A program made the translations under genes and the position numbers. This document shows positions 23,701 through 61,705 of a stretch of DNA of 64,000 nt, in pieces. Under the pieces are notes generated by a model. The model was not told the origin of the DNA and searched no databases. It worked only from the letters and a program-made list of their open reading frames with translations. The stretch's first letter is position 1, and every line of letters begins with the position of its first letter. The stretch comes from Sedimentisphaerales bacterium (GTDB lineage: Bacteria; Planctomycetota; Phycisphaerae; Sedimentisphaerales; SM23-30): NCBI GenBank assembly GCA_963666285.1, contig OY762711.1; one strand, 5' to 3'.

Positions 23701-24598
23701 TGCTATTGCCTGCTATACCATTCAAACTAAAACCTGCATAATAGACAACGGTTTTGGCATTATCCATAACAAAAAAACCATCAAAACTTCCTTTAATTGG
23801 CACTCCAACTGATGTCTGGATAGGAAAATCAGAACTATGATATTTTCCCAAAATATAGTTTTTATTAGCAACCTGAAGCGGAATCAGTTCAAAGTCAACA
23901 TTTACTTTTTGAGTTACCCCTGCGACGGAATGCAGCGAAATTTGCTGACGCCAATTGGCCGGTATGTTTTTTGCGACTGCCAGAGGCAAAATAGAGTTGA
24001 CATAATCAGACATATAAGGCAGCTGCTCTGAACTGAGCGACTCATTGCTTATCGCCCGGTTAAAACGCAGGCTGTTTATGCCATTAGAAAACGATATTGC
24101 AACAGGGTCCTCCACACCTTCATTAAGATTATATGCAACTGGATAATATTCATACATTATCTGGCCGGGAAGAGGATATTTCTTAACATCAATAATCGAA
24201 AAGATTTGACGTGAATAATTCTCGTAACCAGTACAGGAAAAACCCTGCCAATTTAACATAACAAATGAATTCGGGCTAACTTCTGACGTAGAAGAAGTTT
24301 GCGTTTGCTGATTGTTATTGGCTTGAGACTGAGACTGGGAAGGGAGAGAAGGTTTAGTTACCGATGTGGCTGGTGGTTTCGATATAGTCTGAGAAGAACT
24401 GGTTGATTTAGCTGCAGGTATTACAGGTTGTTTTGACACTGTCTGAACATTAGTATTACTGCCATTTGAACCCGTATCAAGCTGAGAGAAAGCCACAATT
24501 ATCATTACAACAACAAACAAAACCACTAAAATAATGAAAAAAGAAAGAATAAATATCAATGGAGTTTGTTTTCCATTAGATTCTGTAGATGACTGCAT
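20777..24598 (-). CDS. Membrane-anchored lipase (alpha/beta hydrolase) + vWA domain protein
   Basis: N- and C-terminal TM; LVFRGTE, ITGHSLGGGLA, GDPL, HAHGI; vWA MIDAS VDNSGSM, GGT, LLTDG. Confidence 0.85.
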   Translation of the reverse strand: MQSSTESNGKQTPLIFILSFFIILVVLFVVVMIIVAFSQLDTGSNGSNTNVQTVSKQPVIPAAKSTSSSQTISKPPATSVTKPSLPSQSQSQANNNQQTQTSSTSEVSPNSFVMLNWQGFSCTGYENYSRQIFSIIDVKKYPLPGQIMYEYYPVAYNLNEGVEDPVAISFSNGINSLRFNRAISNESLSSEQLPYMSDYVNSILPLAVAKNIPANWRQQISLHSVAGVTQKVNVDFELIPLQVANKNYILGKYHSSDFPIQTSVGVPIKGSFDGFFVMDNAKTVVYYAGFSLNGIAGNSRQSSFRYVNNIISVDAYTSSPLLDMEGNFQLSEEMKRYSFMHVAGNAKKPAWSDAVWVEGQMAMLNSSIIGEQSTNPIVLAALAAAHLADAFYTVGANIVHDIKHPENGYNPFDGDVESPLEKYVYRPAATGYAMLADDIGIIDHDKVDAYGNIGGKFLHLAGGLTTTSAYSAATGWSASGTMTHNARQLWGHSSHLAGAAKDAAINLGKVLYYGSPYMEKAGTFYDIASTIADVAQDNDLKTIIDDVADIVNQHTNSGQGYDSQVSINDLDKAVIEQDSQLALLSKAAYGNSVLPSDWRIIDSYELSSCGYYAVIYRNDNLNGKTVLVFRGTEISDIRDWSNNVQNYLGFTSEQYKNAVDDALLVKDALGDQVIITGHSLGGGLAIAAGLATGLETVTFNPAAPGKGIIDWINTRQLPYDSDNIRSYVYQGDPLDKLNQCVDNNGNLVQEAQLFMPHANFLNKLGDAVCAIGATQTFGKLIIVPDRSLINTPLHAHGIDKIYSAMDSSHKENNKYINWLAKIFAFRSKGTSICLVVDNSGSMKDYNKLTQVKKAIDEFMALYVNRLDDQVGVTVFSDNSKNLLPLTKTSQISLTQISGIMDSMIANGGTEIKTGLNTAFQQLQDETSSRKAILLLTDGKDELPDLTAYTSKFRDSSIPVHTVAYGADADSQLLQDIAKNTGGEFFRAGTDSISSIFSRIQLGIAGESLLLAKDSWILPFATQSFDFIVPSDSDALTVGANWQGSHLTLRLIDPFGNLIPQESSADVSFFDDAARAMSYFRLLNPISGKWKIEIFADDVPQEGEFYTIKSSVVNGIRAILDLDEFRYMPGQQVTASLTLNAGARVDKAVLSYPGVRGKIYQRSMSSLTSDNGGRMIGEASFAAPDKVGLYDVVIDLAGVSSTGKRFDLQLTRTLFNGPEELIPASIMESQSAVPGIIWIPTLFIFIFMLLCIIVIVVMLTLSQQKNRQISNDLY

Positions 24599-24681: not shown

Positions 24682-24716
24682 AAAAAACAGGAGTTTTTAT
24701 ACAACTCCTGTTTTTT
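24682..24716. terminator. Intrinsic (bidirectional) terminator
   Basis: AAAAAACAGGAGTT-tttatac-AACTCCTGTTTTTT just after the OMP gene stop. Confidence 0.8.
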
Positions 24717-24726: not shown

Positions 24727-25512
24727 CTAAAAAGAAAAATGAAGCTGAGCATACCAGGCTTTAAAGCTGTCACGAACACTGCCAGCTTCCATATACTGAC
24801 CCTTATATGCACCAATTATAGAAACATCATCATTAATGCTATAAGAAATACCTATACTGCCATTGGTACCAATACCAATTGAATTTTCACTTTCTAACTC
24901 ATAACCACCAGAGGTTGCTGCATCCTGGCTTGCATATAATGCCATAACCTGGGCATTCCAGAACCAGCTCCATTTATCACTGTCAAAAAGAGCATCCCCA
25001 GAACCGGCACCCAGGAATATGCCACCATAATTAGTTTGCTGATCGAACATATCAAAGCCAGTAACTTCATAATCTCTATCAACATAAGTATATTTGATAC
25101 CGACTGTACCATATATATCTTCAAGACCAAAGAAATCAGGATATGACAGACCGGCTTCGATGTCATAACGTTCCATCTCAGCATCAATCTTCACACTTTC
25201 AGCTTCACCTTCCAGATCAATATCAGGAGCATATGTGAAATTTGCAAACCAGCCATTACCATCATAATCACTTTGATTGTAAAGCAAAGAATACGCTCCC
25301 CCCTGGGCATCCCAATCACCAGACAAAAAGCCTTGTTCTGTCCTGTAATCAAACATTTCCATATAACCGAAACTCAAAGTGCGAACAACTCCATTATCGG
25401 TTGAAGTATAAGTTTGATTTGCAACAGAGACATCTTCATCAGCAGCTACTGCAAAAGCAGCAAAACTGACTAAAACAACAGTCAGACATTTAATTAATTT
25501 CATACATTTCAT
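24727..25512 (-). CDS. Outer-membrane beta-barrel protein
   Basis: Signal peptide, alternating aromatic beta-strands, C-terminal AWYAQLHFSF. Confidence 0.75.
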   Translation of the reverse strand: MKCMKLIKCLTVVLVSFAAFAVAADEDVSVANQTYTSTDNGVVRTLSFGYMEMFDYRTEQGFLSGDWDAQGGAYSLLYNQSDYDGNGWFANFTYAPDIDLEGEAESVKIDAEMERYDIEAGLSYPDFFGLEDIYGTVGIKYTYVDRDYEVTGFDMFDQQTNYGGIFLGAGSGDALFDSDKWSWFWNAQVMALYASQDAATSGGYELESENSIGIGTNGSIGISYSINDDVSIIGAYKGQYMEAGSVRDSFKAWYAQLHFSF

Positions 25513-25617: not shown

Positions 25618-28600
25618 CTAAATAGGCGGCCTGGGCCGTTTTCTTTTTTTGACTTCAAAAATAACATACTCTGTTTCACTATCATCACTTTTGGTGTTTT
25701 CATTAACAGCAACTACCCAGAAATAACATTTATCCCATTTAGCCTCTACAGGATTATCTTTTGAAATGTCAATAGAAGTACCTGATGTCAGCTCATAATA
25801 AAAGCTGCCTTTATTTTGATTTTTCTCCTGGTAATAGTAAATGCGATATCTGGTCGCACCCAAAACCGGTTTCCATCTTAAGGTATAGTTACCCTTACCT
25901 TTACTAATAAGTTCAATATCTGGTTTGGATAGTTGATTGCATTCACTTGCCTTGAAAGAGCCTAATGTTAATTCGCTAAATTCACTCTCAACACTTTCCT
26001 TTTCATTGACAGCCTTAACCCAATAATAATATTTTTCATTAGTTTTAATATCAGAATCATCATAGGAAAGTGCTGATAGCCCTCCGGTAAGCTCTTTTTT
26101 CGTGCCGGTGCTGCTACCGGACTTGTATAACATATATTTGTCCGCACGATCAGAAGCATCCCAGGAAATCTTAAGATAACCTTTGTCGCTTTGCTCAACT
26201 TTTAGATTTACCGGAGGGTCAAGCTTGAACTCCCATTTAACATCAATCTCAGCCTGACGAGAAAAAAGATCATTTTTAGCGAAAACCTGATAAGTATATT
26301 TGCCGCTGGAAGCCAGTGTATCTTCAATAGAGCATGTACCGGCAGCTGTTTTAATGCCAGTCAACTCAGTCCAGGAGTTTTCTCCTGTTTTTTTCCTTTT
26401 CACACTATATTCAGCATTAGAAACAGAATTCCATTTTAATTGAATAGAATCATCATTTACTTCATGACTCAGGGTAATATCTTTCAATAAATAACCAGGG
26501 AACAATTCTTTCAAATCAACCAATTTTGATATCGTTAGCTCACCAAAGTCATTTTTCACTGAAAACAGATAGTAATAATTATAATCCCCCGCCTCAGCCC
26601 TGGATACTATCTTTTTATCCTCATAAGAACTGGTGCTAATTCCTTCCCATAATCTTTTTTCCGGTTCATTTTTGTTATTTGCATATGAAATAACAAAATT
26701 ACCTTTCAAAGTATCCGGCCATTTGATTCTAATAGCTGGTTCACTATTAATAGTAAATCCTGTAAGGATAATATCATTTTCAGTTATCTTAGGTATATAT
26801 TTATCATACAACTTCTTTTTCAAATCAGAAGAACGGTCATTGTTGGTGTTGTATTCTAAAGACAAATCACATAATTGAATTGCTTGTTTAATATCACTAT
26901 CAGAATTACTTTTAGATAAATTATCTGCTTCTGAATATAAAGCGTCAGATTTTTCTTTAGTCCATGACTCCCAGGCCTTGGGCAACTCTTTTGACAATTC
27001 CATGTATTTTTGGGCAGCAGCAGAATAATTCTCTAAACTTTCGTAATCTTCTGCTTTTTTAATAAGTTCTTTAAGTACGCCAGGCGGAAATTCATTATCC
27101 AGGTATAAAGAATTTGCAGAATATAAAGAATTCTGCATGTTAAACAAATTTTTAGCGTTTTTATAAGATTTCCATATTTCCCATTTAGCAGAAACAACTT
27201 CCTGCAGTTTAGTATAGCCGGTTATTGCCAGAGAATAATCCTGGTCATTTTCAGCTTTTTGAGAATCGGCAAGAGCCTGCTGAATCTCATCCTGTTTTAA
27301 GAAAGTATTTATATCAAGCCCTTCAGAACTGAGACTATCTACATATTCTTCGTATTCATTTATAATTTTTTCTAATTGACTCTTAAGTTTTGCAGTTCTA
27401 TCATCAGAATCTCCTCTTACATCATCTGGCAGACTTCTTATTTCTGCTTGAAAAGTCACAAAGGTGTTAACAAATACTGCATAATCTTTATCTTTTATTA
27501 ACCCGTTTAACTGCTCTTTGCGTTCTTTGAAGCTTTTTTCATATGGTTGAATTATTTCTTTTGGACAACTTTTTCCTTGTTTGGCAATTTCTTCGTCAGC
27601 CAGTTTTATAAGATCATCCTTTTCAACTGCAAAATGTTTTTCAATATCAATTTTCAAACTACTGACTTTGCTAACATATTGCTGTTTATCATCTTCAAAC
27701 AGGTCGTCGATACGTTTTTTAACTGACTCAAGGTTTGTATATAAGTTTTTCAATTCATAAAGCGAACACTGATCCAGATTGTTGTTTTTTACTAAATCAT
27801 CAATTTCATCAGCGGTTTCTTTTGCTTTTGCCAGCCGTCCTGTAAGCTTTTCCATTTGCCATTGATCTATTAATGTTTTATCAATTAACAATTTGAGTTC
27901 AGATAGTTTTGTAACAGCTGTGTTATACTGCTTTAGCTTTCTTACTACATCCTCTGACGATTTGTCTGAATTAACAGATTTGCTAATATCCCACAAATTA
28001 TTTGCCTGGATTGCTCCAGAAACAGCCTGCCCGTTAGCAGAATAAACATTATTCCCATTCCAGATACTTTGCCACTGCTTCAGCTTATTTCCCAGCAGTT
28101 TTTCATCATATCTTTTATCATTTCTACTATTTAACACATTCAAGACATATAAAATAGTTTCAATATCGTTCCATTTAATTTTATCATTAATCTGCATGGA
28201 ATATCTATTAGCAGGAGATTTCTGAACACACTGGCGAAGTAATACATTTTCGACATAAGACAATGTCTTATTATAGCTATTTCTAAACATATCAACAGAA
28301 CCTTTGCGATCTAATTCTGCCAATACAGTGTTATTATCAAAAGCCAAACAATCATTACAAACCCTAACTGCATTATAAAGATATTTTGACGAACTCCAGC
28401 TGTTTGAGTCAGGATATTTTAGCGGCTCTGACGAATCTAATTTTCTTAAATCGGCAAATTCCCTTATAGCATCATCAATCATATCTGAAGGGATAGAAGG
28501 TTCATATGGTTTATTACTCAAAAATAATATACCAGCAATTACCGCCAGCATAAATATAGTCAGCAGCATGCCGGCCATAATAAAAACTGCGGCCGGAGTA

Positions 28601-29616
28601 CGTTTGGTCGGGACTAACTGCATGCTGGGAAGCTTACTACGCTGGTCTTCCAATACCTGCTTGAGATCTTCATCTTCAAAAAGTGTTGACCTCAGGCCAA
28701 GAGTATGCTTAGCTGAATGCTGTACTATACTTTGCGACTGCAGTGATTCTGCAACTTCGGAGGCACTATTGAAGCGGTTATCCGGGTTCTTCTCCAGCAG
28801 TCTCAGGATAATATTGTTGAGCCAGTCGGGCAGATCAGGCCGTTTTTCTTTGGGCGGCACCGGCTTTTGCTGAATGTGACTAGCCAAAACCGAAACAGGA
28901 TTGCCCTGAAGGTCCGGGAACGGAACATCACCAGTGGCCATCTCATACATAACTATTCCAAGACTGTACAGGTCAGACCTTGGGTCTAATGATGATTTTG
29001 AGGATGCGTGTTCGGGTGACATATATTCAGCCGAGCCAACAAGCTGAAATTGCTGGGTCAGTTTTCGGTTGGTCTGTATATATGCAATACCGAAATCCAT
29101 CAATACCGGTACAGAATAGTCACTTCTCAGCAACATGACATTACTGGGTTTCAGATCACGATGGACAATTCGTTCGCTATGTGTATGTGCATGCTGTAAG
29201 GCATTACACAATGGTATTGTTAAATTGACAATATCAGATACATCTATATATCGATTTGTATCCCGATGATTTTTGACAATCTGATCCAATGAAGTGCCAT
29301 CAAGCCACTCCAAAACCATATAATACCAGGTACACCCCTGACTGTCTTTCTTTTCGCCGGAATTATAGAAGCGAACAATACCATGATGATTTAGCTTGCT
29401 TAAAACTTCTGCTTCCCTGACAAATCTCTCAACATTAACAGGGTCGGAACAAAAGTGCGGTTTTAATACTTTAACAGCAACTATTCTGTCATTTGCATGG
29501 TCATAGGCCTTAAAAACATATGCCATGCCGCCTTCGAGACGATCATGCAGATCAAAGCCGTCAAGATAAAAGCCATCATTATTGTTTGAGCCAAAATCTG
29601 TCATCTTAGATGCCAA
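25618..29616 (-). CDS. Transmembrane Hanks-type Ser/Thr kinase with large helical ectodomain and FN3 repeats
   Basis: GGMAYVF, VAVKVL, HRDLKPSN, DFGIA, GSAEYMSPE, DLYSLG; single TM; C-terminal FN3 motifs (ISWDAS..YYYWVKAVN). Confidence 0.93.
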   Translation of the reverse strand: MASKMTDFGSNNNDGFYLDGFDLHDRLEGGMAYVFKAYDHANDRIVAVKVLKPHFCSDPVNVERFVREAEVLSKLNHHGIVRFYNSGEKKDSQGCTWYYMVLEWLDGTSLDQIVKNHRDTNRYIDVSDIVNLTIPLCNALQHAHTHSERIVHRDLKPSNVMLLRSDYSVPVLMDFGIAYIQTNRKLTQQFQLVGSAEYMSPEHASSKSSLDPRSDLYSLGIVMYEMATGDVPFPDLQGNPVSVLASHIQQKPVPPKEKRPDLPDWLNNIILRLLEKNPDNRFNSASEVAESLQSQSIVQHSAKHTLGLRSTLFEDEDLKQVLEDQRSKLPSMQLVPTKRTPAAVFIMAGMLLTIFMLAVIAGILFLSNKPYEPSIPSDMIDDAIREFADLRKLDSSEPLKYPDSNSWSSSKYLYNAVRVCNDCLAFDNNTVLAELDRKGSVDMFRNSYNKTLSYVENVLLRQCVQKSPANRYSMQINDKIKWNDIETILYVLNVLNSRNDKRYDEKLLGNKLKQWQSIWNGNNVYSANGQAVSGAIQANNLWDISKSVNSDKSSEDVVRKLKQYNTAVTKLSELKLLIDKTLIDQWQMEKLTGRLAKAKETADEIDDLVKNNNLDQCSLYELKNLYTNLESVKKRIDDLFEDDKQQYVSKVSSLKIDIEKHFAVEKDDLIKLADEEIAKQGKSCPKEIIQPYEKSFKERKEQLNGLIKDKDYAVFVNTFVTFQAEIRSLPDDVRGDSDDRTAKLKSQLEKIINEYEEYVDSLSSEGLDINTFLKQDEIQQALADSQKAENDQDYSLAITGYTKLQEVVSAKWEIWKSYKNAKNLFNMQNSLYSANSLYLDNEFPPGVLKELIKKAEDYESLENYSAAAQKYMELSKELPKAWESWTKEKSDALYSEADNLSKSNSDSDIKQAIQLCDLSLEYNTNNDRSSDLKKKLYDKYIPKITENDIILTGFTINSEPAIRIKWPDTLKGNFVISYANNKNEPEKRLWEGISTSSYEDKKIVSRAEAGDYNYYYLFSVKNDFGELTISKLVDLKELFPGYLLKDITLSHEVNDDSIQLKWNSVSNAEYSVKRKKTGENSWTELTGIKTAAGTCSIEDTLASSGKYTYQVFAKNDLFSRQAEIDVKWEFKLDPPVNLKVEQSDKGYLKISWDASDRADKYMLYKSGSSTGTKKELTGGLSALSYDDSDIKTNEKYYYWVKAVNEKESVESEFSELTLGSFKASECNQLSKPDIELISKGKGNYTLRWKPVLGATRYRIYYYQEKNQNKGSFYYELTSGTSIDISKDNPVEAKWDKCYFWVVAVNENTKSDDSETEYVIFEVKKRKRPRPPI

Positions 29617-29648
29617 AATTCCCTTTCATGTATATATTTGCAGTCAGT

Positions 29649-31202
29649 TCAAAATCCATAATTTGAATGCCTAAATTCTACCTGAGTCTGTCCCATTTGT
29701 ATCCGGTCACCTACCTGCAGCATAACCGGCTGACTGGCCAGGTTTCCGTTTATCAGCGTACCATTTCTGCTGCAATTATGCAGGAAATAATGTCCATCCT
29801 GATACAGTATATTAGCATGGACCCTGGAAGCTCCTACATCCTGTTCAGGTAGTTTAAGATCAACATTTTCTCCACGGCCGCAAGTAATACTATAATCATA
29901 CAGAAATAGTTTTGTATCTACTGCATTGCCTGAAATAACCTGAAGCATGGCATTGGCCTGATCCACAGGTACATCAGAAACGAAAGAATACATCATATCA
30001 AAATCGCGAGGAAGTGCCTGCTGCCTGCCATTGAAAACGCCAACAAGGAAGAAAATCAAACCCAAAACGCCGCAAATAGCACCAAAAGCAGTAAAAAACA
30101 TATTAAACACACATCCGGCACCACCAATAACCAAACCTAAAATAAGCAGTACAATTCCAACGATAATAAAGCCTTTACCGGAAGAACCTGCTCCCTGCAA
30201 GCCGAAATCAGCACCCGGATACAAAAAGCTATCATCATATCCAAAATTGGCCATATTCGACTCGCCGGCCAATACAGCACCAGCCATATCCAAAGCTTCA
30301 CTGGGCTTGACCTGTTCAATAGGTTTGAGTTCTATAACTTCCTGCAAACCAAGCAAACTAACATCAGATATCTGTCGAATGGCTTCAGCAAGCTCAGCAA
30401 CACTGGCATATCGACTGTTAGGACTTTTTGCCAGACATTTCATGACAATAGCGGAGACAGAAGAATCCAGCCCACGGCATTTCTGCTGTATAGGGACAAC
30501 ATCCTGCTTTATTACCGCGGCAAGCACTGCCATCGGATTTTCACCGGAAAAAGGAGGAACACCAGAGAGACATTCATACATTACAGCACCAAGGCTATAG
30601 ATATCTGAACGCTGATCAATCTGATTCACATAAGTATGATTCATACGTTCCGGAGCCATATATTCCGGCCGACCGAGGATTAACTTACCTGTCATGTTGC
30701 TACGTTCACTAGGGGCGGCAATGCCAAAATCAGCGAGTTTGACTTGCGAAACTATACCCTGATTCATACCGACAAAGATATTATTGGGCTTAATATCACG
30801 ATGAGCCCTTATCCTTGCAGCTTCATAGGCATACTGCAGGGCAACACAAGTATGAAATATTATTTTAGAAACATTGTCCCAGCTAACAGGGTACTGCCGG
30901 CAATATTTCTTTTCCTCTAAAATATCATCCAAAGTCGGATAATTAATCCATTCCATCATCATATATGATCTGCTCGGATCAGATCCAACCTGGCCATCCA
31001 TAGTATATACAATTGCAGGATGTCGACCGATAGCCATGCCTATACGCAATTCTCTATCAAAACGAGATAAAGAACATTCGGGGCGCGGAATTTTTACAGC
31101 CACTGTTCCATATTCGGCAACATTGCCTTTATAAACAGAAGCCATACCTCCACCCTGCATGTATTCAAGGTCACCAAGTTTTTCCAGCCCAGGGAGAATC
31201 AT
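29649..31202 (-). CDS. Ser/Thr kinase - two TM helices - FHA domain
   Basis: GGGMASVY, VAVKIP, HRDIKPNN, DFGIA, YMAPE; FHA CGR..ASRVHA..SRNGT..GDRIQMG. Confidence 0.92.
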   Translation of the reverse strand: MILPGLEKLGDLEYMQGGGMASVYKGNVAEYGTVAVKIPRPECSLSRFDRELRIGMAIGRHPAIVYTMDGQVGSDPSRSYMMMEWINYPTLDDILEEKKYCRQYPVSWDNVSKIIFHTCVALQYAYEAARIRAHRDIKPNNIFVGMNQGIVSQVKLADFGIAAPSERSNMTGKLILGRPEYMAPERMNHTYVNQIDQRSDIYSLGAVMYECLSGVPPFSGENPMAVLAAVIKQDVVPIQQKCRGLDSSVSAIVMKCLAKSPNSRYASVAELAEAIRQISDVSLLGLQEVIELKPIEQVKPSEALDMAGAVLAGESNMANFGYDDSFLYPGADFGLQGAGSSGKGFIIVGIVLLILGLVIGGAGCVFNMFFTAFGAICGVLGLIFFLVGVFNGRQQALPRDFDMMYSFVSDVPVDQANAMLQVISGNAVDTKLFLYDYSITCGRGENVDLKLPEQDVGASRVHANILYQDGHYFLHNCSRNGTLINGNLASQPVMLQVGDRIQMGQTQVEFRHSNYGF

Positions 31203-31206
31203 AATA

Positions 31207-32469
31207 TTATCTTATGCCGTACCCTTCAGTTTGAGCAGTATCATTCATACCGGGATCTACCTCAGGGAGATTTTGTCCTGATACAGATGCCGATTTTCTT
31301 CCACGGAGCTGAATTCCGGCAATAAGTAATCCAGCAATAATAATCAAGGCTAAAAATGCCGGGACACTAATAGACAAAATTCTTTCCCAGAAAGATTTTG
31401 CAGTGAATATAGCAGTCTGGAAACTGGTGCTAACTTGAGTTTCACCTATTTCAGGCTCATTGATAACTATAGCGAAATTATGTGTCAGGCCGTCACCCGG
31501 ACACAAATCGGCAGGAACGGTAACTACCAGTCCCAGATGCGGGGCTGTCAATGTTTCAAACTGAGGCCTGTAGTCGGTTTTATTATAATCAGGCTGCCAT
31601 ATCGCACCGCCGGTATTGCTACTGATCAGATCAGCATGAGATTCGTTATAGTTTTTACCTTCGGGAGTGAAGATGATCACCTTGATATTTTTTTCAATGG
31701 CCTTGTTCTTGACAGCTTCAAATGTAACACTGCTGGCATCATCCTCAAGAGTACTGAAAACAATCAATACTTTTCTCTGGACCAGTTTCTGGTCGTCGGT
31801 AATATCAGGATAACTGTCAATTAAAGAATTCATGGCATCGTATATTCTGACAGAAGTAATATCATTTAACGACATCACATCTTTGCGGCAGGTCTTGACA
31901 CCACTATCGATATCATTTTTTACCTGCTGGACATCATCACCAACAGTGCGCCAGTTCACAAATGGAGTAGGACTGCTTTCATAGTTGGCTGATGACAGAT
32001 AAATCATATCTTCAGGAGCGAGCTGATCAATAACCTGACCGGCACATAACTTCAACTGAAGCATAACATCGCTTAACGCCCAGCTCTGGTCAAACAAGAA
32101 CGCGACATGAAGCCCCATATCACCGTAATAGCTGTGAGCCATCGAAACCAGATCCTGCTGAACAAGATTACCATCTGCATAAACCTGGACATCAGTTAAA
32201 TCGACATTTCCCAGGCTCACACCACCATCAAGGGCAAAGCCAAGATAATGAATACCCTGATCCTGGTCAGGAAGATAGCAGAACTGACTGCCCTGGCCCA
32301 TCGGAAGCTGAAACCCACATGCCGGATCTGTCGATGGCTGATCGATAGTCATAGCTCCATTACTATTGACCAGAGAACAGGGTAACCCCTGCAGTACAGT
32401 ATCCGCATATAAAAAGTTCGCCGTTAATAACACTATCGAAAAAATGCTGATTAATTTTTGATACTTCAT
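31207..32469 (-). CDS. Exported vWA-like protein with C-terminal membrane anchor (degenerate MIDAS)
   Basis: Signal peptide; VAFLFDQSWA, RIYDAM, KVLIVFSTLED, ISSNTGG; C-terminal TM. Confidence 0.7.
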   Translation of the reverse strand: MKYQKLISIFSIVLLTANFLYADTVLQGLPCSLVNSNGAMTIDQPSTDPACGFQLPMGQGSQFCYLPDQDQGIHYLGFALDGGVSLGNVDLTDVQVYADGNLVQQDLVSMAHSYYGDMGLHVAFLFDQSWALSDVMLQLKLCAGQVIDQLAPEDMIYLSSANYESSPTPFVNWRTVGDDVQQVKNDIDSGVKTCRKDVMSLNDITSVRIYDAMNSLIDSYPDITDDQKLVQRKVLIVFSTLEDDASSVTFEAVKNKAIEKNIKVIIFTPEGKNYNESHADLISSNTGGAIWQPDYNKTDYRPQFETLTAPHLGLVVTVPADLCPGDGLTHNFAIVINEPEIGETQVSTSFQTAIFTAKSFWERILSISVPAFLALIIIAGLLIAGIQLRGRKSASVSGQNLPEVDPGMNDTAQTEGYGIR

Positions 32470-32505
32470 TTTTAATTCCTATATTTAATTAGTTGCCATT
32501 CCCAT

Positions 32506-35500
32506 TTATTTTTTTACTGTTTTAGTGCTCATATAATCCTGACCACTTTCATCTTTTCCTGTCAAACTTATTTCTATTATATTATTAGGATTTTCTATTA
32601 TTTTAACTTTACTGTCGTCTGTAACAACAATACTATCAGACTTATCATTAACTCTTGTAATATTAGAACTCAATATTTCTTTCCCACTCCCTTTGATATG
32701 AATCTTAATCACACCACTAATAAGGTCAACATTAGCCCATTCACAAAATATGGATTTTTTATCCTTATTATATGTAGCTTCAAGAATATAAATACCAAGA
32801 TTTGCGTTTACCTCGACAGACTCGTCAAGTTTATCTGTACCTGATAAGTTAGTATTATTACCTGGACTACTAGGTTTACTATCAATATCTAATAAATCAA
32901 TAGATACCTTTATTTGACTCCAGCTTGAGTTCCCAAAACGATTTTTAGCTCTTACAAAATAGATGTATTCTTTGATGGGTTTTATTTTATCTAAATGATC
33001 TTTAAATTGTTTGTCATCATATTCTATTTCATTATAATCTGAAACAAGAATATTGTCTTTTTCCGGACTATAATGGCCAATTCTTCCCCACCCGATATCA
33101 TAAGAAACAGGAAAATTATCAAAAGCATCACCATATAAAACTTTAACCGAATCACCATATTCATTTAAACTTGCCGCAGGCTCAGGTTTCCCATCTTGAC
33201 TAGTACTAAGACGATGTGATAAACAAGGAATAAATTTATTTACAATGGATTTCATTAATCCATTAATTTCTTTTTCCACATCATAGGAATGTAAAGGTTC
33301 TGACTCAAATTTTTTATAACCATTTAACAATCCCTCTAACTTAACATACAATTTCACAGCTTTTTCATAATCTCCAATTTGCTCAATTCCATTGTCCTTT
33401 AAATAACTTTCTATTTTTCCATTATAAGACTCCAGGAAACCATTAACATAGTCATTATAATCAAAAGGAGAATTAAGATTTACCACAGAATTGATAGCAT
33501 CATGCAATTTACTACAACCATGAGGATCAATATCACTATCGCACAACTCTTGGATACCTCTTAAGCTATCCTTACACTTAGTATTCCAGTTTTTACAGAA
33601 TTCATTATATTTATTATCAATAACCGTGCGAAGAGAACCAAGAATACTATAAGCCAGACCAAAATCATTTCTAGAAATTTCATCATTAACCAGACTCAAT
33701 TTATCATCAATAATTTTATTTAATTCCCTTTTAAACTCTTCTTTTAACTCATTATTAAATTTCTCGCATAATTCATCGCAACGAGTAGAAAGACCTGCCT
33801 TCTCAGATTCCAATATACTTTTAATTTCTTTTACCAGAGATGTTTTTACTAAATCGTATTTTCCTAGAACATCTTTTTCTCCCATAAAAAGTAATTCTGT
33901 GCTCTGGCTATCTAGATTATCAAATAACGCAATTAAGTTGTTTGGGTCACTGTTAGAATTATTTTGAATAACATCGAGACAGGTATATATCTCCGTTTCA
34001 GTTTTTGCAGCATCAGTAATTCTCTGGTTTACAACCTCGATATTCGGTATAGATATTTCATCTCCAAACTCACATCCAGTTACAACAGTATTTATAGCTT
34101 GAGCATATTTTTTAGCTTTTTCAATAGTCATATCTTTTGCGTTAAAAGTAGTTTCGGAATCCCAAAAAACATTTACTAATTTAGAAGCATTAAAATATTC
34201 TTCTTTTGGATTATCATTTCTGATATCAAAGTCTTTTTGACCACCCCAGACAGCCTCCCACTTATTTAGCTCATTTTCCAAGGTAGTGGAAGGCTCGCTG
34301 CACAAAGAATTAATTATTATAAGAAAATTCTTAACTTCATCCCAGCTAACATTTGCAATTGATTCAGGTAATTTACTGCGACCCTCAACAGGATAAATAA
34401 AACACATTCTAAGTAAATTCTGCTGAATCATATCATATGATTGAATATAAGCATACCGCATTTCAGAAGGACAATTATTTTTTAGTGATTCAAATATTAT
34501 TTCAGAACCATCTTGACTGGAACAATTATAAAAGTTTTTTATTAAGCCACATAGATTAACAATATTATTAGCTCGATAAAATTGACTCAAACTCCGCCGA
34601 AGATCATCATATTTAATTATAGGTACAATATTACCACCTATTTCTCCGACAACATTAGAAGTAGCATCACTACCAGAAAGTTCTTCATTATTTTCACCAG
34701 TTTCGGAATCAAGATCAAGATTGCTGCCTATTTCCTGAATTCCACCCTGTGTTTGAGTACTATCATCACTTTTCTCAGTTGTGGGAGTATCACCATTGGT
34801 AACTTCGGGGGCATTGCCTTTATTCGCAAAAAGGACGAAAATCAGCACAATTGCGACCAGGCAAGTCAGCGATATGCCGCCGAGCAGGAAAAGGGGATTA
34901 AATCGTCCGGAACCGGAAGAACCACTTTCATAAGATTCTTCTGAAAAGGCTGTTGGAACAGCTGAGACATCGGTCTGGGCAATCTTTTTCTTGCTTAGAT
35001 CTCCGATTTTTCCGCCTGGCAGGGTTATAATTTTACCCGGCTTATAACCAGCAGGCATCTGTCCAAAATCACTGCTTTGTTCGACCCTGAAAATAAGACA
35101 GGTAGCATTATCAGAACCATCTCGCCGGACCGCAGTAGTAACAACATTCTCGGCAGCTGCTTGCAATAATGGCTGAGAACTGATAATCGCAGGGTAGTCT
35201 TCCGGTCCCATACACAGTGGAGGATTTTTTTCCAGGCCACCATGAACACCATCACAGCAAAGTAAGAATGTTTGCCCTGAAGCAATATCAATAGAAAACG
35301 GATCAATACGCGGGTCAACGGCACCACCGGTACCGACCATATGAGTAACCTGGTTGCCGCCTACATGCTGGACGGCCACCTCAGGGGCAACGCCCTGCTT
35401 AATGAGATCATTCAACGCCGAATGGTCCTCGGTAAGCTGGGTAGAGGAAACAGGGTCAACCTGGTAAACGCGGCCATCGCCAACATGAACAATAAGCACC

Positions 35501-35865
35501 TTATTATTAGTAACAACGGCCAGATCCGCGGTAGTTCCCATAGCGGAGACATGTTTTGCCCGAGCCATATTATATATCTGGCGGTTTAACTCAGAGACAT
35601 ACTGTTTCATTTCACAAAGCAGAATCTCCTCGGAAGAATCCCCTGTATATTGCGAAAAATGCTCAAGCAGCTGGTTGACCACAAGCTGGCTGGCCTCATC
35701 TCCGGCATGACCGCCACCCATCCCATCAGCCACGACAAAAACAGCCCTGATTGTTGATGGAACAGGTGATATCCAAACGCCCGCAGAATCCTGATTGATA
35801 GACCTCTCTTTACCTACATGCGTGGCAATACCGAAACTAAATCCAACTGTCTGTGATTCCAGCAT
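32506..35865 (-). CDS. Receptor-like PP2C (PPM) Ser/Thr phosphatase with TM and large ectodomain
   Basis: THVGKERSINQD, VADGMGG, HVGDGRVY, LLCCDGV, DGSDNAT; single TM; ~750-aa extracytoplasmic part. Confidence 0.92.
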   Translation of the reverse strand: MLESQTVGFSFGIATHVGKERSINQDSAGVWISPVPSTIRAVFVVADGMGGGHAGDEASQLVVNQLLEHFSQYTGDSSEEILLCEMKQYVSELNRQIYNMARAKHVSAMGTTADLAVVTNNKVLIVHVGDGRVYQVDPVSSTQLTEDHSALNDLIKQGVAPEVAVQHVGGNQVTHMVGTGGAVDPRIDPFSIDIASGQTFLLCCDGVHGGLEKNPPLCMGPEDYPAIISSQPLLQAAAENVVTTAVRRDGSDNATCLIFRVEQSSDFGQMPAGYKPGKIITLPGGKIGDLSKKKIAQTDVSAVPTAFSEESYESGSSGSGRFNPLFLLGGISLTCLVAIVLIFVLFANKGNAPEVTNGDTPTTEKSDDSTQTQGGIQEIGSNLDLDSETGENNEELSGSDATSNVVGEIGGNIVPIIKYDDLRRSLSQFYRANNIVNLCGLIKNFYNCSSQDGSEIIFESLKNNCPSEMRYAYIQSYDMIQQNLLRMCFIYPVEGRSKLPESIANVSWDEVKNFLIIINSLCSEPSTTLENELNKWEAVWGGQKDFDIRNDNPKEEYFNASKLVNVFWDSETTFNAKDMTIEKAKKYAQAINTVVTGCEFGDEISIPNIEVVNQRITDAAKTETEIYTCLDVIQNNSNSDPNNLIALFDNLDSQSTELLFMGEKDVLGKYDLVKTSLVKEIKSILESEKAGLSTRCDELCEKFNNELKEEFKRELNKIIDDKLSLVNDEISRNDFGLAYSILGSLRTVIDNKYNEFCKNWNTKCKDSLRGIQELCDSDIDPHGCSKLHDAINSVVNLNSPFDYNDYVNGFLESYNGKIESYLKDNGIEQIGDYEKAVKLYVKLEGLLNGYKKFESEPLHSYDVEKEINGLMKSIVNKFIPCLSHRLSTSQDGKPEPAASLNEYGDSVKVLYGDAFDNFPVSYDIGWGRIGHYSPEKDNILVSDYNEIEYDDKQFKDHLDKIKPIKEYIYFVRAKNRFGNSSWSQIKVSIDLLDIDSKPSSPGNNTNLSGTDKLDESVEVNANLGIYILEATYNKDKKSIFCEWANVDLISGVIKIHIKGSGKEILSSNITRVNDKSDSIVVTDDSKVKIIENPNNIIEISLTGKDESGQDYMSTKTVKK

Positions 35866-35900: not shown

Positions 35901-36680
35901 TTATCCATTAAAATCTGGCAAATGTTCAGGTGATTCTTGAGGTTCAATGATCATAATTTTCAGCCTGGTTTCACCTAAAACAAGATAGTCACCATCTTCC
36001 AGAACAGTCTTTTTGTTAATTCGCCCTTTTTCTTCACCTCGTTCCAAAATGGTACCATTAGCAGAGCCAAGATCAATCACGCTTACTTTCTGGGTGTCCT
36101 GATCTTCCAGAAGCATACAATGTTCACCACTCATATTGTTATCCTCAGGGAATGACAATTCGCAACTGGCATTTCTACCTATCCTGTTTCTTTTTAACGA
36201 GCCGTCCGGACCTTTCATCGCAAGAGAGAAGTTCATCCCATGATTTTTTCCGCCAAACTGGGTTAGATTTACTACCCTGCTTGGAACAGCATTGATTATC
36301 ATGGTACCTTTATTGATAGCAGGCGCGGTAAGCGGTGCCCGATTGGCCATCTCAGCAACCTTTCGATCAGCTTCTTCACGTGCCCTTGCAATCTCAGCCT
36401 GACTCTGTGCCAACTGCTGCTGCATACTAGACATCATTCGCTGACGTTCGATCTCTTCCGGAGTAGGTCCGCCCGGAACAATAATGTAAATGAAAAGTCC
36501 AATTAAACCTAATGCCGGGATAGCAACAAAGGCGGCCCAGCCGACACTTTTACCTGACCGTTTAGCGTCACTTGCAACCCAGATAGCCATGAGGATTTGA
36601 ATAATCACTGCCAACACAGCTAAGCCGATCCAAACATATAATAACGTATTGCTATTAACATTCGAGCTAGTTAAATTCAT
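35901..36680 (-). CDS. Two-TM, coiled-coil, FHA domain protein
   Basis: WVASDAKR..W (PLDc_N-like TM pair); FHA IGR..MSGEHC..DLGSANGT. Confidence 0.88.
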   Translation of the reverse strand: MNLTSSNVNSNTLLYVWIGLAVLAVIIQILMAIWVASDAKRSGKSVGWAAFVAIPALGLIGLFIYIIVPGGPTPEEIERQRMMSSMQQQLAQSQAEIARAREEADRKVAEMANRAPLTAPAINKGTMIINAVPSRVVNLTQFGGKNHGMNFSLAMKGPDGSLKRNRIGRNASCELSFPEDNNMSGEHCMLLEDQDTQKVSVIDLGSANGTILERGEEKGRINKKTVLEDGDYLVLGETRLKIMIIEPQESPEHLPDFNG

Positions 36681-36699: not shown

Positions 36700-37122
36700 T
36701 TATCTACCTAAATCATTCCGATTAAATTCACTGATATTCAGAAGCAATTCTGTGCTTCCAACCCAGATACGATCACCATTTTTAAGAAATTCTTTTCCAG
36801 AAACCTGAATGCGATTATCAATTCCTCTACAAACTAAAGTAGGATTAGTAGAGGCTAAATTAAATAAACATAAATGCCCATCTTCCATACGAATTTCACA
36901 ATGCCGTTTACTAACTGAAGGGTCACCACTTATGACAACCTGGCATTCTGCGCTGCTTCCAACAACATTACGGACCGGATTGCCCTGAAAATCTTCAATA
37001 GCAATTGAATATTCACGGTGTAAATCCCTTCCGGAAACAACCACCAGACGGGCACTCCTTCGTCCAACCCCCTGAGGCTGGATAATAACCGTATGTTTTG
37101 GATTCCTATCAGAGTTATTCAT
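36700..37122 (-). CDS. Stand-alone FHA domain protein (duplicate of the upstream gene's C-terminus)
   Basis: VGSS..VSKRHC..STNPT..GDRIWVG; high identity to 37142-37535. Confidence 0.85.
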   Translation of the reverse strand: MNNSDRNPKHTVIIQPQGVGRRSARLVVVSGRDLHREYSIAIEDFQGNPVRNVVGSSAECQVVISGDPSVSKRHCEIRMEDGHLCLFNLASTNPTLVCRGIDNRIQVSGKEFLKNGDRIWVGSTELLLNISEFNRNDLGR

Positions 37123-37141: not shown

Positions 37142-38140
37142 TTATCTGCCTAAATCATTTTGATTAAATTCGCTTACATACAGCTGCAATTCTGTACTTC
37201 CAACCCAGATACGATCACTGTTTTTAAGAAATTCTTTTCCAGAAACCTGGATACGATTATCTAAACCTCTACAGACAAGAGTTGGATTAGTAGAGGCAAG
37301 ATTAAACAGACATAAATGGCCATTCTCCATGCGAATCTCACAGTGCCGCTTGCTAATAGATGGATCACCACTCAAGACAACCTGACATTCTGCACTGCTT
37401 CCAATAACATTATGAACCGGATTGCCCTGGAAATCCTCGATGGAAATGGTATATTCACGATGTAAATCTCTGCCAGAAACAACAACAAGTCTGGCACTTC
37501 TAAATCCAACCCCCTGAGGCTGGATCATAACTGTAGCCTTTGACATATCTCCACCGGTTGTTATTGTCCTGGTTGGAGGTAACGGCGTACCGCCAGCCGG
37601 AGGAGTTAAAGGCGGCAACGGCGGTCTTTTACTCGCTCCCCCCAGATAAACCATCAGGAATACCGGAAAAATTAAAGAAAGCGCTACCAGCAAAATCACC
37701 ACAATCACATTTGCGACTAAGATATCTTCTACACTAACAGAGCGAGAATGGTAATTCACCATTGAAACAAAGATCATAAAAATGAAAACGGTTAAAATAT
37801 CGAGAGTCAGCTTCATAATACCATACACAAAGCAGAAAGTTCTACCCCATCGTTTATTCTGAGCCAAACCAATCCCACCGATCATCAATAGCAAAGGGAT
37901 TAGTAAAATTAAAGACAGAACTAACACAGATAGAGCGATCTTGTGTGTAACAGCAGCTAAAACAGAAGCCCAAATATGCGAAATTGATCCAAAAAGAGTA
38001 AAAACAATATCACCAATTTGCAACAAAATCATATTGCCAGACATTTGCCCTGCAATTAAAAGTGCGCAACCGACAAAACCAAATACACCGAAAATAATCG
38101 CTACAACACCTGCGGCTGTAGTATTCTTTTGATTATTCAT
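37142..38140 (-). CDS. Multi-TM membrane protein with Pro-rich linker and C-terminal FHA domain
   Basis: Four or more hydrophobic helices, PPLPPLTPP linker, FHA IGSS..ISKRHC..STNPT. Confidence 0.85.
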   Translation of the reverse strand: MNNQKNTTAAGVVAIIFGVFGFVGCALLIAGQMSGNMILLQIGDIVFTLFGSISHIWASVLAAVTHKIALSVLVLSLILLIPLLLMIGGIGLAQNKRWGRTFCFVYGIMKLTLDILTVFIFMIFVSMVNYHSRSVSVEDILVANVIVVILLVALSLIFPVFLMVYLGGASKRPPLPPLTPPAGGTPLPPTRTITTGGDMSKATVMIQPQGVGFRSARLVVVSGRDLHREYTISIEDFQGNPVHNVIGSSAECQVVLSGDPSISKRHCEIRMENGHLCLFNLASTNPTLVCRGLDNRIQVSGKEFLKNSDRIWVGSTELQLYVSEFNQNDLGR

Positions 38141-38158: not shown

Positions 38159-40216
38159 TTATTTTTTGTAAAATTCATCAACGGTAAAGGAATATCCCTT
38201 TTGCCTTATTTGATGAAAAACATATGCCGAAGCATTTTTGTTACCAATTAAATAATAACCACAACCAAGATATTCAAGTACATCTTTTACAGAGTCTTTA
38301 TCCACTCCGGAAGGATCTTCGTTCAACCAGTTTTCATATTTCCCCAGGATAGCGATAATTTTCTGGCCACTAGAAGAATTCCTTTCCATCTCCAAAGCTT
38401 TAGCATAAAGAACCCTGTCTTCCAGTGCAAGATCCACCTGAGGTACTTTACCATAGAACATTCTTGCTTTTTCATTTTCTTTACACAAAGCAAACACCTT
38501 GGCCAACCCTTTAACTAAAGAGTCATCAGGAACGGCATTTTCAATTTGCTTTGCCAACTCTAAAGCTTCTTCCTGCTTTTCCAGATTTGCATAGACTAAA
38601 GAAAGCTCAAGATAAGCTTGCGAAGGGACCAGGTCATCACCTTTACTTTCAAATAAATCTATGTAATCTTTCAAGACATCGACAGCGCGATCATCGTTGT
38701 ATTTATTAAAATCAACCACTAAAGCTTTTCTTGTCTCCCAGGAGATATCTCTATATTTACCAATCTGCCTGATTTGGTCATAAGAATTAATATAACGTTT
38801 GAATATTTCCCAGTTTTCAGACATACTATTAAAAGACTTTACCGTATCGAAAAGCAATAAATTCAGAGCAGATCTGTATTCCTGAAAATCGCCAAGTAAT
38901 ATTTCGATTTTTTTTGCATCAACTAATTTGTCGTTTATTTTCTCTTTAAATACTTCAACCTTATTTTTCACATCCAGAATTTCTTCCAGATCCCCTACTT
39001 CTTCAATAAGTAACTTAATATTATCCGGAAACTCGTAATTAGAAATTTCAGACGCCATCTGCCTGAAAGAATTAAGATTATCTTCAAGCTCATCTATTTT
39101 GACTTTAGCGTTATTTAAATCTGCGTCACTGAAATACCCGGAAATCTTGTTACACAAAGGTTCACATTTATCAAACTCGGTTAAGGCATTATCAAACTTT
39201 CCATTTACTTCAGTAAGCACCTGCCTGACAGGCTTAACGTAATTTTCAGTAATAAAACTCTCAATATCTCCCGGCGCAACAACAAAACTATTAACAGCGC
39301 GATCACCAGCTTTTTCCAAAGCCAGCGTAATTTCTCCCCCGCCCGGATTCCTTAGCAAAGAAGAATATTCTATCACAGTGTAAGTTGACAAGGCTTTAGA
39401 AATATTGCGGCCACACCCGGACAGATCTTCCATCTTAGAAAACATCGTCCCTCCGCTGGCATTAACAAGCTGCCTATACAAACCATCTGCAGCATAGTCC
39501 TTAAGCGGATTCACCGATACCAGATTAAAATTGACAGTATATTTTTTGAAATAGTAATTTATTCGATCGTAATCAGAAACAAAGCCTCCATGATCATTTG
39601 CAGCAATCAAAACAATTGTAGTCTTTTTCTGGTCACTACCAGGAATTGCAGCAAACTTTTTCATGGCAAGTAAAATTGCATCCCCAATTGGCTGTACCGA
39701 CAATGCTAATGGTCGATCAAGTTCCTTGCAACTATCAATCTCTTTTGTCGCTTTGTCACTACTAATCCAATCATGCACAACTTTTGCCTTCAATTCCAGG
39801 TCTAAGCCGTTATGTTCAATAGTAGTAGCTACTTTTGGTGTCATGGCAATTGTAAGAACTTTATCAGAGACTTTAAGTTCGCTCAATAATTTTTTAGCAC
39901 CTTCTTTAATCTCATCGGTTTCAACTTTACCATGATTATCAAAAATGAAAATATAATTATTAGAAATCCCAACTTCTTCACGAATCTCAATTGAATCCGA
40001 GGCTATAGTTTTATTATTTTCAGATAATGAAATCTCATCACCTAAGCCTCCATTATCCTTTGCATATATAGTGATTTTCGGAAAAACGTCCTTTGATGTC
40101 TTAACCTCAACAATATCTAATGCCGGCCAAGGCTGCTTTACAATTTCAGCTCCACAACAATATGGCATAGATAAAAGAACGAGAGCTCCCCAAATCAGTT
40201 TATTTTTTATAAACAT
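38159..40216 (-). CDS. Exported vWA-like / coiled-coil / TPR-like protein
   Basis: Signal peptide; YIFIFDNHGK, IGDAILLA, IVLIAAND, LVNASGG; helical C-terminus with TPR-like AYLELSLVY..EEALE and EYLGCGYY. Confidence 0.65.
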   Translation of the reverse strand: MFIKNKLIWGALVLLSMPYCCGAEIVKQPWPALDIVEVKTSKDVFPKITIYAKDNGGLGDEISLSENNKTIASDSIEIREEVGISNNYIFIFDNHGKVETDEIKEGAKKLLSELKVSDKVLTIAMTPKVATTIEHNGLDLELKAKVVHDWISSDKATKEIDSCKELDRPLALSVQPIGDAILLAMKKFAAIPGSDQKKTTIVLIAANDHGGFVSDYDRINYYFKKYTVNFNLVSVNPLKDYAADGLYRQLVNASGGTMFSKMEDLSGCGRNISKALSTYTVIEYSSLLRNPGGGEITLALEKAGDRAVNSFVVAPGDIESFITENYVKPVRQVLTEVNGKFDNALTEFDKCEPLCNKISGYFSDADLNNAKVKIDELEDNLNSFRQMASEISNYEFPDNIKLLIEEVGDLEEILDVKNKVEVFKEKINDKLVDAKKIEILLGDFQEYRSALNLLLFDTVKSFNSMSENWEIFKRYINSYDQIRQIGKYRDISWETRKALVVDFNKYNDDRAVDVLKDYIDLFESKGDDLVPSQAYLELSLVYANLEKQEEALELAKQIENAVPDDSLVKGLAKVFALCKENEKARMFYGKVPQVDLALEDRVLYAKALEMERNSSSGQKIIAILGKYENWLNEDPSGVDKDSVKDVLEYLGCGYYLIGNKNASAYVFHQIRQKGYSFTVDEFYKK

Positions 40217-40258: not shown

Positions 40259-41224
40259 TTAGAAGCTACACCCGATAACTATTGATCCTATTCTGTCGAC
40301 ACCATGCTGTTCTTCAAATTCTCTAGTATAGAATGTTTGAGAATAGCCAATTTTCAAAGATTTATAATGATGCATTAAACCTACCTCAAGTGCGCCGACC
40401 AGAGGTTTCTCAGAAAGACCGGTAAGAAAACGATTATGTTCAACAGCTTTACCATTAGCCCTGACAAAAAGATAACTTGCCTTAGAATCCGAAACTTCAG
40501 AGGAGTGACCTATAGGTTTGTCGAGTCTTCCCGGTCCAAAATCATCATCAAGGTTAAATCCACAACGAAGAATAAACCCTAACTCTGCATGCCTGTGTAA
40601 AGTACCGGCAGTAAATCCGTACTCTGTCATAAAATCAATACCTTCAGGCAATTCAATAAGAGGCAATTGGCTTTTTTCTCTTACATAATAAGAAAAATCA
40701 AATGTCATCTCATCACTCAACTGATTTTCCCAGCCATAAGGTTCATTTTTATCCATAAGATCATGGACAAACTCCTGTGTATCCTCACCAAAAGCAGAAG
40801 GCCCAATAAGTCCGACATTTAATTCAGTCAATTCAATCTTTTTCGAATCTGCCCGCTGCATAAAAATACCTGAATACAACCAGCCGGCAAATTTCATATC
40901 CACATCAAACTGTCTATCCAGTTCATCAACGTAATCCGGAGTGTAAAGATTTTGTCCAACAAAAATACCTAGCCGCGAAGTATAGTCACCGTCAAAACAC
41001 CATCCGCCTAAACTACTTAATAAATCCCATTCAGGCACCATATCTGTTGTATATACTATTTTTGTGCCATTAGTATAATGCCGATCTGTTTTGCCATTTG
41101 GTTTCAAACTCTGACTATCATTGTCGGCGTATAGATCAATGACAGACTGCGAAAATAATGCATTTGCTACTAAAAATAATACTGCAACTACTAAAAACGA
41201 ACGGTTTCGGTTTACTGGACTCAT
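40259..41224 (-). CDS. LpxR-family (DUF2219) lipid A deacylase-like outer membrane protein
   Basis: DND, DRHYTNG, GQNLYTP, FAGWLY, GLIGPSAFGE..Q..VH, GWENQL, TREF; C-terminal Phe. Confidence 0.85.
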   Translation of the reverse strand: MSPVNRNRSFLVVAVLFLVANALFSQSVIDLYADNDSQSLKPNGKTDRHYTNGTKIVYTTDMVPEWDLLSSLGGWCFDGDYTSRLGIFVGQNLYTPDYVDELDRQFDVDMKFAGWLYSGIFMQRADSKKIELTELNVGLIGPSAFGEDTQEFVHDLMDKNEPYGWENQLSDEMTFDFSYYVREKSQLPLIELPEGIDFMTEYGFTAGTLHRHAELGFILRCGFNLDDDFGPGRLDKPIGHSSEVSDSKASYLFVRANGKAVEHNRFLTGLSEKPLVGALEVGLMHHYKSLKIGYSQTFYTREFEEQHGVDRIGSIVIGCSF

Positions 41225-48182: not shown

Positions 48183-48204
48183 ATTTCATTCTCTTCAGCT
48201 ACAT

Positions 48205-49095: not shown

Positions 49096-49195
49096 TACCT
49101 CTCCAATATCATTATTATATATTAAAACATCTCTTTTTAGAAAGTAGCTGGCAAGTCAATAAACAACTCACCAACTACTGTCATATTTTATATCA

Positions 49196-49720: not shown

Positions 49721-49746
49721 TCCTTGTATATATAATTATTATGTTA

Positions 49747-51846: not shown

Positions 51847-51883
51847 CTTACGCCTCCCCCAATACGGGTAGTATGATTCCGAA

Positions 51884-51917
51884 CAGGACAGACAACTTAA
51901 CGATGCTGTCTGTCCTG
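51884..51917. terminator. Intergenic hairpin between MCP genes
   Basis: CAGGACAGACA-12 nt-TGTCTGTCCTG. Confidence 0.5.
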
Positions 51918-61692: not shown

Positions 61693-61705
61693 TTTTTTAT
61701 CCTCA

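Follow-up and report, generated by a model that had tools for sequence, protein, structure and literature searches.

Why should the enzyme that writes a phosphorylation mark and the enzyme that erases it carry the same domain beyond their membrane helix? This question is raised by a 64,000-nucleotide stretch of DNA, here called the window, from a Sedimentisphaerales bacterium of the phylum Planctomycetota (GenBank assembly GCA_963666285.1, contig OY762711.1). It encodes a receptor-type Hanks Ser/Thr kinase (P0001, 1332 amino acids, 25618..29616) and a receptor-type PP2C/PPM phosphatase (P0002, 1119 amino acids, 32506..35865), both on the minus strand. Past its only membrane helix, each of the two proteins has a region homologous to one in the other, as a preliminary description of the window had proposed.

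With the whole proteins, BLASTP aligned residues 344-810 of the kinase with residues 325-849 of P0002 (E 3e-9; 21% identity, with 115 identical positions in 551 columns). A Smith-Waterman alignment of the two cores scored 124, compared to 39.0 ± 6.7 for shuffled sequences and 40 for the reversed sequence, and the core score was reached by none of 1000 whole shuffles and none of 1000 shuffles within ten-residue windows. The proposed alignment is thus significant against shuffled controls. In a tblastn search of the 6.35 Mb genome, each outer region was the best non-self match of the other (E 2e-5 to 3e-3). Further evidence comes from two foreign phosphatases, P0004 and P0005. A profile made from their outer regions only, without window sequences, was searched against 15,514 open reading frames of the genome plus 37 proteins, its own two members being excluded from the ranking. 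It ranked P0001 first (E 2.3e-9, residues about 428-574) and P0002 second (E 1.8e-6, residues about 468-578), and the next match had an E of 0.35. A weak extra match in the genome, at C1:1380221-1382257, was rejected by eye as a chemoreceptor. The paralogy of the two outer regions is therefore borne out by BLASTP, by the shuffles and by the foreign-phosphatase profile.

The peptides on which the proposal rested are all present, among them, in the kinase, MFRNSY at 443 (window about 28290) and KQYNTAV at 562-568 and, in P0002, MRYAYI at 469 (about 34461) and KKYAQAI at 585-591, and both proteins show the order LLRxC, W, WxxxWxG, NxxWD, KxYxxA. The shared part does not directly follow the transmembrane helix, as had been stated, but begins about 35 residues past it in the kinase and about 70 in the phosphatase. 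The kinase copy comprises residues 400-650 (27667..28419, minus strand) and is predicted to be all-helical, with its firmest part at residues 428-574 (window 28335-27895). The phosphatase copy comprises residues 417-670 (33856..34617, minus strand), with its firmest part at residues 468-578 (window 34464-34132) and helices predicted without the kinase in the alignment. The well-supported core has about 150-250 residues; further out, the similarity is merely suggestive. In the four clear copies, an A, LLxxC, an N, LxxxLxxW, a G, a W and one K are invariant, and the conserved columns of the core are Leu, Trp, Cys, Asn and Gly at an overall identity of 15-27%. The similarity of the stalks beyond the core was reached by none of 899 random genome segments. 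A profile of the FN3 repeats of P0001 gave an insignificant match to P0002 (E 0.23). Measured from the helix, the first FN3-like unit ends at a similar distance in both proteins (after about 660 and 645 residues).

Are both proteins functional enzymes? P0001 consists of a kinase domain (Pfam Pkinase, E 2e-43), one membrane helix (the single strong hydrophobic helix by hydropathy, 342-360), the shared domain, a helical stalk and FN3-type repeats (fn3, E 6.8e-7). Its catalytic motifs AVKV (47), RFVRE (64), HRDLKPSN (152), DFG (174) and GSAEYMSPE (194) supply the catalytic Lys, the helix-C Glu, HRDxKxxN, DFG and the APE-like motif of Hanks-type kinases. PASTA repeats were not found with Pfam, and P0001 stays under the NCBIfam cut-off for PknB/Stk1 PASTA kinases (NF033483, 279 vs 450 bits). 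P0002 consists of a catalytic domain (PP2C_2, E 2.9e-14), one membrane helix (again the single strong one by hydropathy, 327-345, followed by about 770 further residues), a Ser/Thr/Gly/acidic linker, the shared domain, a helical stalk and an Ig/FN3-like end, where an Ig-like match (952-986, E 7.6e-4) lies under the Pfam cut-off. The metal-binding Asp motifs RSINQD, ADGMGG, CDGV and DNAT are intact. The P0002 model has the PP2C fold, as it matches Stp of S. agalactiae (2pk0; Z 26.1, root-mean-square deviation 3.8, 240 aligned) and PstP (1txo; Z 25.5). It stays under the NCBIfam cut-off for the Stp1/IreP equivalog (NF033484, 158 vs 230 bits), and Pfam finds no FHA domain in it. Judged by these intact motifs, both proteins look catalytically active. 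Directly after the catalytic domain of P0002 stands the segment P-x-G-Y-x-P-G-x-x-I-x-L-P-G-G-x-x-G-D-L (residues 271-289, window about 35000-35055); this motif is kept in most members of the P0002 clade and is possibly a docking element.

The domain had been called unnamed, and it belongs to no family found in Pfam, NCBIfam, the PDB sequences or the ESM Atlas. No match to Pfam, NCBIfam or PDB sequences reached E 0.01 over the domain, the best subthreshold ones being DUF5557 (E 0.048, P0002 417-451) and a PDB chain (E 0.039 over 35 positions), and the ESM Atlas, searched as large clusters, gave no usable match. AlphaFold2 predicted residues 400-720 of the kinase as all-helical (two sequences, the phosphatase being one of the alignment; mean predicted local distance difference test, pLDDT, 47.5), and the outer core in a model of whole P0002 likewise (six sequences, no kinase; mean pLDDT 48.9, 49-72 over 421-550). 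The kinase helices (409-423, 428-437, 441-465, 482-499, 505-519, 529-545, 554-574, 586-611) appear, at low confidence, each to have a single counterpart in the alignment among those of P0002 (435-449, 454-464, 466-490, 508-520, 529-540, 553-568, 581-596, 609-635). Of the fold comparison that had been suggested as a check, this correspondence of predicted helices is the part that agrees; searches with the kinase model at pLDDT 47.5 gave as best match only E 0.068 in Foldseek and Z 11.0 in VIA (root-mean-square deviation 2.9, 111 aligned), the latter within the range for unrelated helical bundles, and the fold search with P0002 was filled by its PP2C domain. A complex prediction of the two cores, made without controls (0.49, 0.00, 0.00), counts neither way.

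How old is the sharing? A search with the catalytic domain of P0002 among long proteins gave 38 matches, of which P0004-P0008 are 53-64% identical and the other 32 25-33%. In all of P0004-P0008, a membrane helix stands at the corresponding position and the C-terminal region is long; the five come from metagenome sources, each as a singleton, and P0004 (636 amino acids) appears cut short. The domain is clear in P0004 and P0005 (z 7.6 and 10.4 with the kinase), weak in P0007 and undetectable in P0006 and P0008, and the C-terminal parts differ among these orthologous phosphatases. The 1070-residue outer region of P0008 has no Cys, 40 Trp and, by eye, an internal repeat, and P0005 alone gives it a score (z 5.0). 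Over 150 columns without gaps, 33 residues are common to the kinase and P0002, compared to 40 for the kinase and one foreign phosphatase and 39 for the kinase and the other; the phosphatases share 23-32 among themselves. Ten residues are private to the kinase and P0002, compared to 14 and 15 for the kinase and each foreign phosphatase. Maximum-likelihood distances from a separate alignment make the kinase and P0002 the closest pair (2.6 vs 3.1-4.5), in a tree that is unresolved. A recent local duplication of the core is unsupported, since shared-residue counts and distances name different closest pairs. To judge from these sequences, it is likely that the sharing predates the divergence of these phosphatases, or that the kinase copy has changed more slowly.

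Among the three phosphatase copies, the core has drifted about five times as fast as the catalytic domain (3.5-4.5 vs 0.72-0.84 substitutions per site, values that are saturated and so rough). Such drift would suit a shared domain that is only a scaffold or a relic, that is, a stalk base from an old duplication or domain swap, with recognition at the far ends and a homology that couples nothing today. The unspecific helical bundles among the fold matches, the two of five orthologues with undetectable domain and their differing C-terminal parts agree with this. However, the membrane-near core is the most conserved part of the outer region, its invariant Trp, Cys and Gly exceed what a generic stalk needs, and it is retained on both enzymes. 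We regard a mere scaffold or relic as unlikely.

The domain is rare. HMMER with a two-sequence profile from the window found only the two window proteins among 1.84 billion representative proteins; this blank marks a limit of sensitivity, because the same profile gives P0004 and P0005 only 24 and 18 bits. A word-index search with each ectodomain returned the window proteins only. The domain was found in none of 60 relatives, none of 400 genomes of the phylum (four-sequence profile), not on plasmids and in none of 555 stretches of a metagenome pattern scan. In a sample of the class, two of 300 matched at E 0.007 and were dropped, one being zinc-peptidase-like by eye and the other containing two stops. 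Searches for related operons by neighbouring genes found none with the 420 amino acid protein (0 of 250), the second kinase (0 of 21 stretches) or the FHA membrane protein (0 of 60) described below, and scans with the phosphatase clade gave, among the matches listed, only distant PP2Cs (28-36% identical). No variant letters appeared in two sequencing runs of one study. As a control, we took 81 loci around distant PP2Cs (the best 80 of 521, plus one), of which 27 gave pairs with tails of at least 100 residues. None of 60 pairs of phosphatase tail and kinase tail reached E 0.01 (best 0.044), and the domain profile matched no locus; since these loci are mostly of one architecture, the control indicates no more than that kinase and phosphatase in such loci do not as a rule share a tail.

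Several observations weigh against a pairing role of the two copies, the reading set out below. P0001 is the only kinase with the domain in this set, beside six phosphatases. P0006 and P0008 have no signal to either window protein, the signal of P0007 is low (z 3.3 with P0002, 0.7 with the kinase), and adding P0007 to the profile weakens the kinase match to E 0.0048. The kinase stalk scores z 4.9 with P0002, yet also z 4.5 with P0008, and the top 12 phmmer matches of the stalk lack the partner protein. Because P0008 nearly matches the stalk score, homology over the whole length is suggested at most. Both structural models are of low confidence, and that of the kinase had the phosphatase in its alignment. 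Finally, the control loci, mostly of one architecture with short phosphatase tails, are not 60 independent tests.

What could a domain shared by two antagonists do? Our tentative reading, to which we give somewhat less than an even chance, is that the helical shared domain acts on the predicted periplasmic side as a pairing surface for kinase and phosphatase. A duplicated self-pairing domain commonly gives a heterodimer. By analogy with the kinase PpkA, pairing of two kinases by dimerisation would switch phosphorylation on; pairing of kinase and phosphatase would turn it off by keeping the eraser close to the writer. The FHA proteins of the same gene cluster would be substrates and readers via their TxxI motifs; by the specificity of FHA domains, TxxI would be a phosphorylation and docking site. 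The exported vWA-like proteins of the cluster may be the input that tips the balance between on and off. The complete scheme, with writer-writer and writer-eraser pairs as alternative dimers and an outside cue that sets phosphorylation by partner exchange, is possible but doubtful in its entirety. Of this reading, the sequences themselves show the homology, the intact motifs, the one helix in each protein, the tight run with FHA genes and the presence of the domain on foreign phosphatases. Besides the homology, the intact motifs and the close gene spacing, the similar reach of the two proteins, the precedent of PpkA and the absence of shared tails among the control pairs speak for pairing.

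The two receptor genes belong to a run of ten genes on the minus strand, to which the following positions refer. From LpxR to P0001 the gaps measure 4-42 nucleotides, followed by 105 nucleotides to the last gene and then a terminator-like hairpin that closes the run (24682..24716, 14 pairs and a T run, a consensus match only); a promoter scan stayed at chance level (69 vs 61 ± 7). The first gene encodes an outer-membrane barrel of the LpxR family (40259..41224, Pfam LpxR E 5.7e-64), which has relatives in four of five kin genomes tested and may not belong functionally to the cluster. It is followed by a 685 amino acid protein (38159..40216) with signal-like N-terminus, possibly a degenerate vWA-like domain (vWA profile E 0.64) and, at the C-terminus, helices that resemble TPR (TPR_14 E 0.17), both assignments being unproven. 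Three FHA proteins come next: a multi-helix membrane protein with C-terminal FHA domain (37142..38140), a soluble protein of 140 amino acids (36700..37122), both with GS in place of GR, and a membrane protein with two helices, a coiled stretch and a canonical FHA domain (35901..36680, Pfam FHA E 5.4e-11; GR / SxxH / NG). A TxxI motif stands just before the FHA domain in each of the three. The soluble protein and the C-terminal 132 residues of the multi-helix protein are 88% identical, pointing to a recent duplication or conversion within an otherwise very diverged cluster. P0002 is separated by a 420 amino acid protein (31207..32469) from the second kinase (29649..31202, 517 amino acids; Pkinase E 8.6e-33, FHA E 4e-14), which has a kinase domain, two membrane helices (345, 372) and a C-terminal FHA domain; kinase and FHA domains are both predicted to be cytoplasmic. 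P0001 and a 261 amino acid protein (24727..25512; signal-like N-terminus, C-terminal Phe, by eye like an outer-membrane barrel), without family match and found in none of five kin genomes, complete the run. In total, the run has four FHA domains, and two of its exported proteins are vWA-like but degenerate.

The 420 amino acid protein has a signal-like N-terminus, a degenerate vWA-like domain and a C-terminal membrane helix with a short tail. It gave no Pfam, NCBIfam or PDB match, carries DQSWA in place of DxSxS and reaches only a weak E 0.014 with a vWA profile built from 17 vWA domains of the same genome. The vWA proteins named as possible ligands are thus weaker candidates than had been implied: the two within the cluster are degenerate, and the clear vWA domain lies past the terminator-like hairpin, in a 1273 amino acid protein (window 20777-24598; Pfam E 2.9e-21, canonical) with N- and C-terminal membrane helices and a lipase-like GHSLGGG segment. 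This bears on the other half of the question, whether the two domains share a ligand. Both could bind one third partner, a vWA-like protein or an outside molecule, and be regulated separately without contact. Two exported vWA-like proteins are encoded in the run, one of them between phosphatase and kinases, and Trp residues conserved in four copies could line a pocket; moreover, TagQ/TagR are proposed, in the accessible part of PMC13713981, to act in this way for PpkA. Against it stand the weak vWA assignment with degenerate motifs of the metal-ion-dependent adhesion site (MIDAS) and the only 33 identical residues in 150 columns, with no excess private to kinase and P0002 (10 vs 14 and 15), so that the sequences lend no help to the claim of a same ligand. 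We hold a common ligand to be a doubtful, though possible, explanation, and it can hold together with pairing. Complementary pairing fits somewhat better than an identical pocket, because the core is kept, the surfaces drift and no private residues are shared.

Neither the phosphatase clade nor the FHA membrane protein was found in three genomes of the same genus, two of them more than 90% complete; the cluster is therefore patchy. Patchy presence, together with conserved catalytic domains (51-62% identity) beside variable outer regions, would also be expected if the variable outer parts detected phage, a predator or a competitor, with the shared core as constant base. Kinase-PP2C-vWA genes do accompany some conflict systems according to the available part of PMC7159879. 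However, Pfam and NCBIfam detect no gene for an effector, an NTPase or secretion among the ten, variability by itself does not show selection, and the type VI secretion sheath family PF05943 (VipB/TssC), the one core family tested, was not found in the genome (97% complete; E. coli control positive). We consider a conflict sensor very unlikely.

Several neighbours are recorded here as observations in their own right. A PilZ and cNMP-binding protein (window 19829-20596) has a GC content of 0.50, compared to 0.36-0.44 for the cluster genes. At 16540-17954, Rhs-type core motifs seen by eye in two overlapping frames precede an unannotated tip; the longer frame has no Pfam match, and the region looks like an orphan polymorphic-toxin module. 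A chemotaxis cluster occupies 47061-63874 (CheB, CheR, CheW, CheA, a receiver, four MCP-domain proteins and a Cache-domain protein). Elsewhere in the genome, two more compact groups, each of a PP2C-FHA, a kinase-FHA and a vWA gene (C1:2967568-2970700 and 3433156-3436175), lack long outer regions, and both adjoin a recombinase-like gene by eye. Matches of the DUF1559 type, also in this genome, speak for a planctomycete as the host.

How does this locus compare with known systems? In the actinobacterial pknB/pknA/pstP/fhaA/fhaB cluster, rodA and pbpA lie between phosphatase and kinases, and PstP is membrane-anchored. Like this cluster and the PrkC/PrpC and Stk1/Stp1 pairs of Firmicutes, the present run unites kinase and phosphatase, with two kinases, several FHA proteins and a membrane PP2C, and the best NCBIfam matches of P0001 and P0002 are the PknB and Stp1 models, both under cut-off. 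In contrast to the actinobacterial cluster, Pfam detects no PASTA repeats, rodA or pbpA, and only the 420 amino acid vWA-like gene separates PP2C and kinases. For PknB/PstP-type pairs, co-transcription and PASTA sensing are described in the accessible portion of PMC6213207; P0002 differs from these by an outer part of about 770 residues that is homologous to that of the kinase.

In the type VI secretion pathway of Pseudomonas aeruginosa (PpkA, PppA, Fha1, TagQRST), a membrane Hanks kinase, an opposing PP2C and an FHA protein are likewise encoded together. As far as the available text of PMC13713981 goes, PpkA autophosphorylates on dimerisation, which is proposed to be driven on the periplasmic side by TagQ/TagR, and PppA opposes it on Fha1; PpkA with its vWA domain appears in the corresponding part of PMC1262709. 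P0001 itself has no vWA domain, and in these portions of the two papers PppA has no described outer domain shared with PpkA. The DRA0331-0334 operon of Deinococcus radiodurans encodes vWA, kinase, FHA and FHA-PP2C proteins, with push-pull control via FHA docking, in the accessible part of its account (bioRxiv 10.64898/2026.01.23.701218). Kinase, FHA and PP2C are equally clear in our cluster; the vWA-like genes of the run are weak and the clear vWA lies past the terminator-like site. The available account gives the Deinococcus FHA-PP2C fusion no outer domain and lets the kinase end in three membrane helices, whereas both enzymes of the present cluster have long homologous outer regions. The ArnA-ArnB module of Sulfolobus (PMC6509490) is a phosphorylation switch that likewise combines FHA with vWA; there, ArnB is phosphorylated and bound by ArnA. 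Unlike in that module, the vWA-like domains of our cluster stand behind signal-like N-termini, and their predicted place is outside and thus apart from the FHA domains. The combination of kinase, PP2C, FHA and vWA genes is already known; the homologous outer domain on both enzymes appears to be the new part. Animal receptor tyrosine kinases and phosphatases are single-pass writers and erasers with related outer modules including FN3. They serve as an analogy only, with other catalytic families and generic Ig/FN3 modules in place of a rare private domain.

A literature search turned up no bacterial pair of kinase and PP2C whose outer domains are described as homologous; it was narrow, mostly without subscription papers or supplements, and is weak evidence of absence. 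The limit of the finding is its rarity, with one kinase and six phosphatases, none of them tied to a phenotype. In the bacterial Ser/Thr systems covered by these sources, sensing is assigned to the kinase and resetting to the phosphatase. A phosphatase whose outer region of 770 residues is homologous to that of the kinase suggests an eraser that acts as a receptor in its own right, and a switch that is set outside the cytoplasm. The unnamed domain gives a short list of conserved residues for asking whether a PP2C is regulated across the membrane. If partner exchange proves true, it would be a receptor-phosphatase logic that we have not found described for bacterial Ser/Thr signalling, built on an unnamed domain family.

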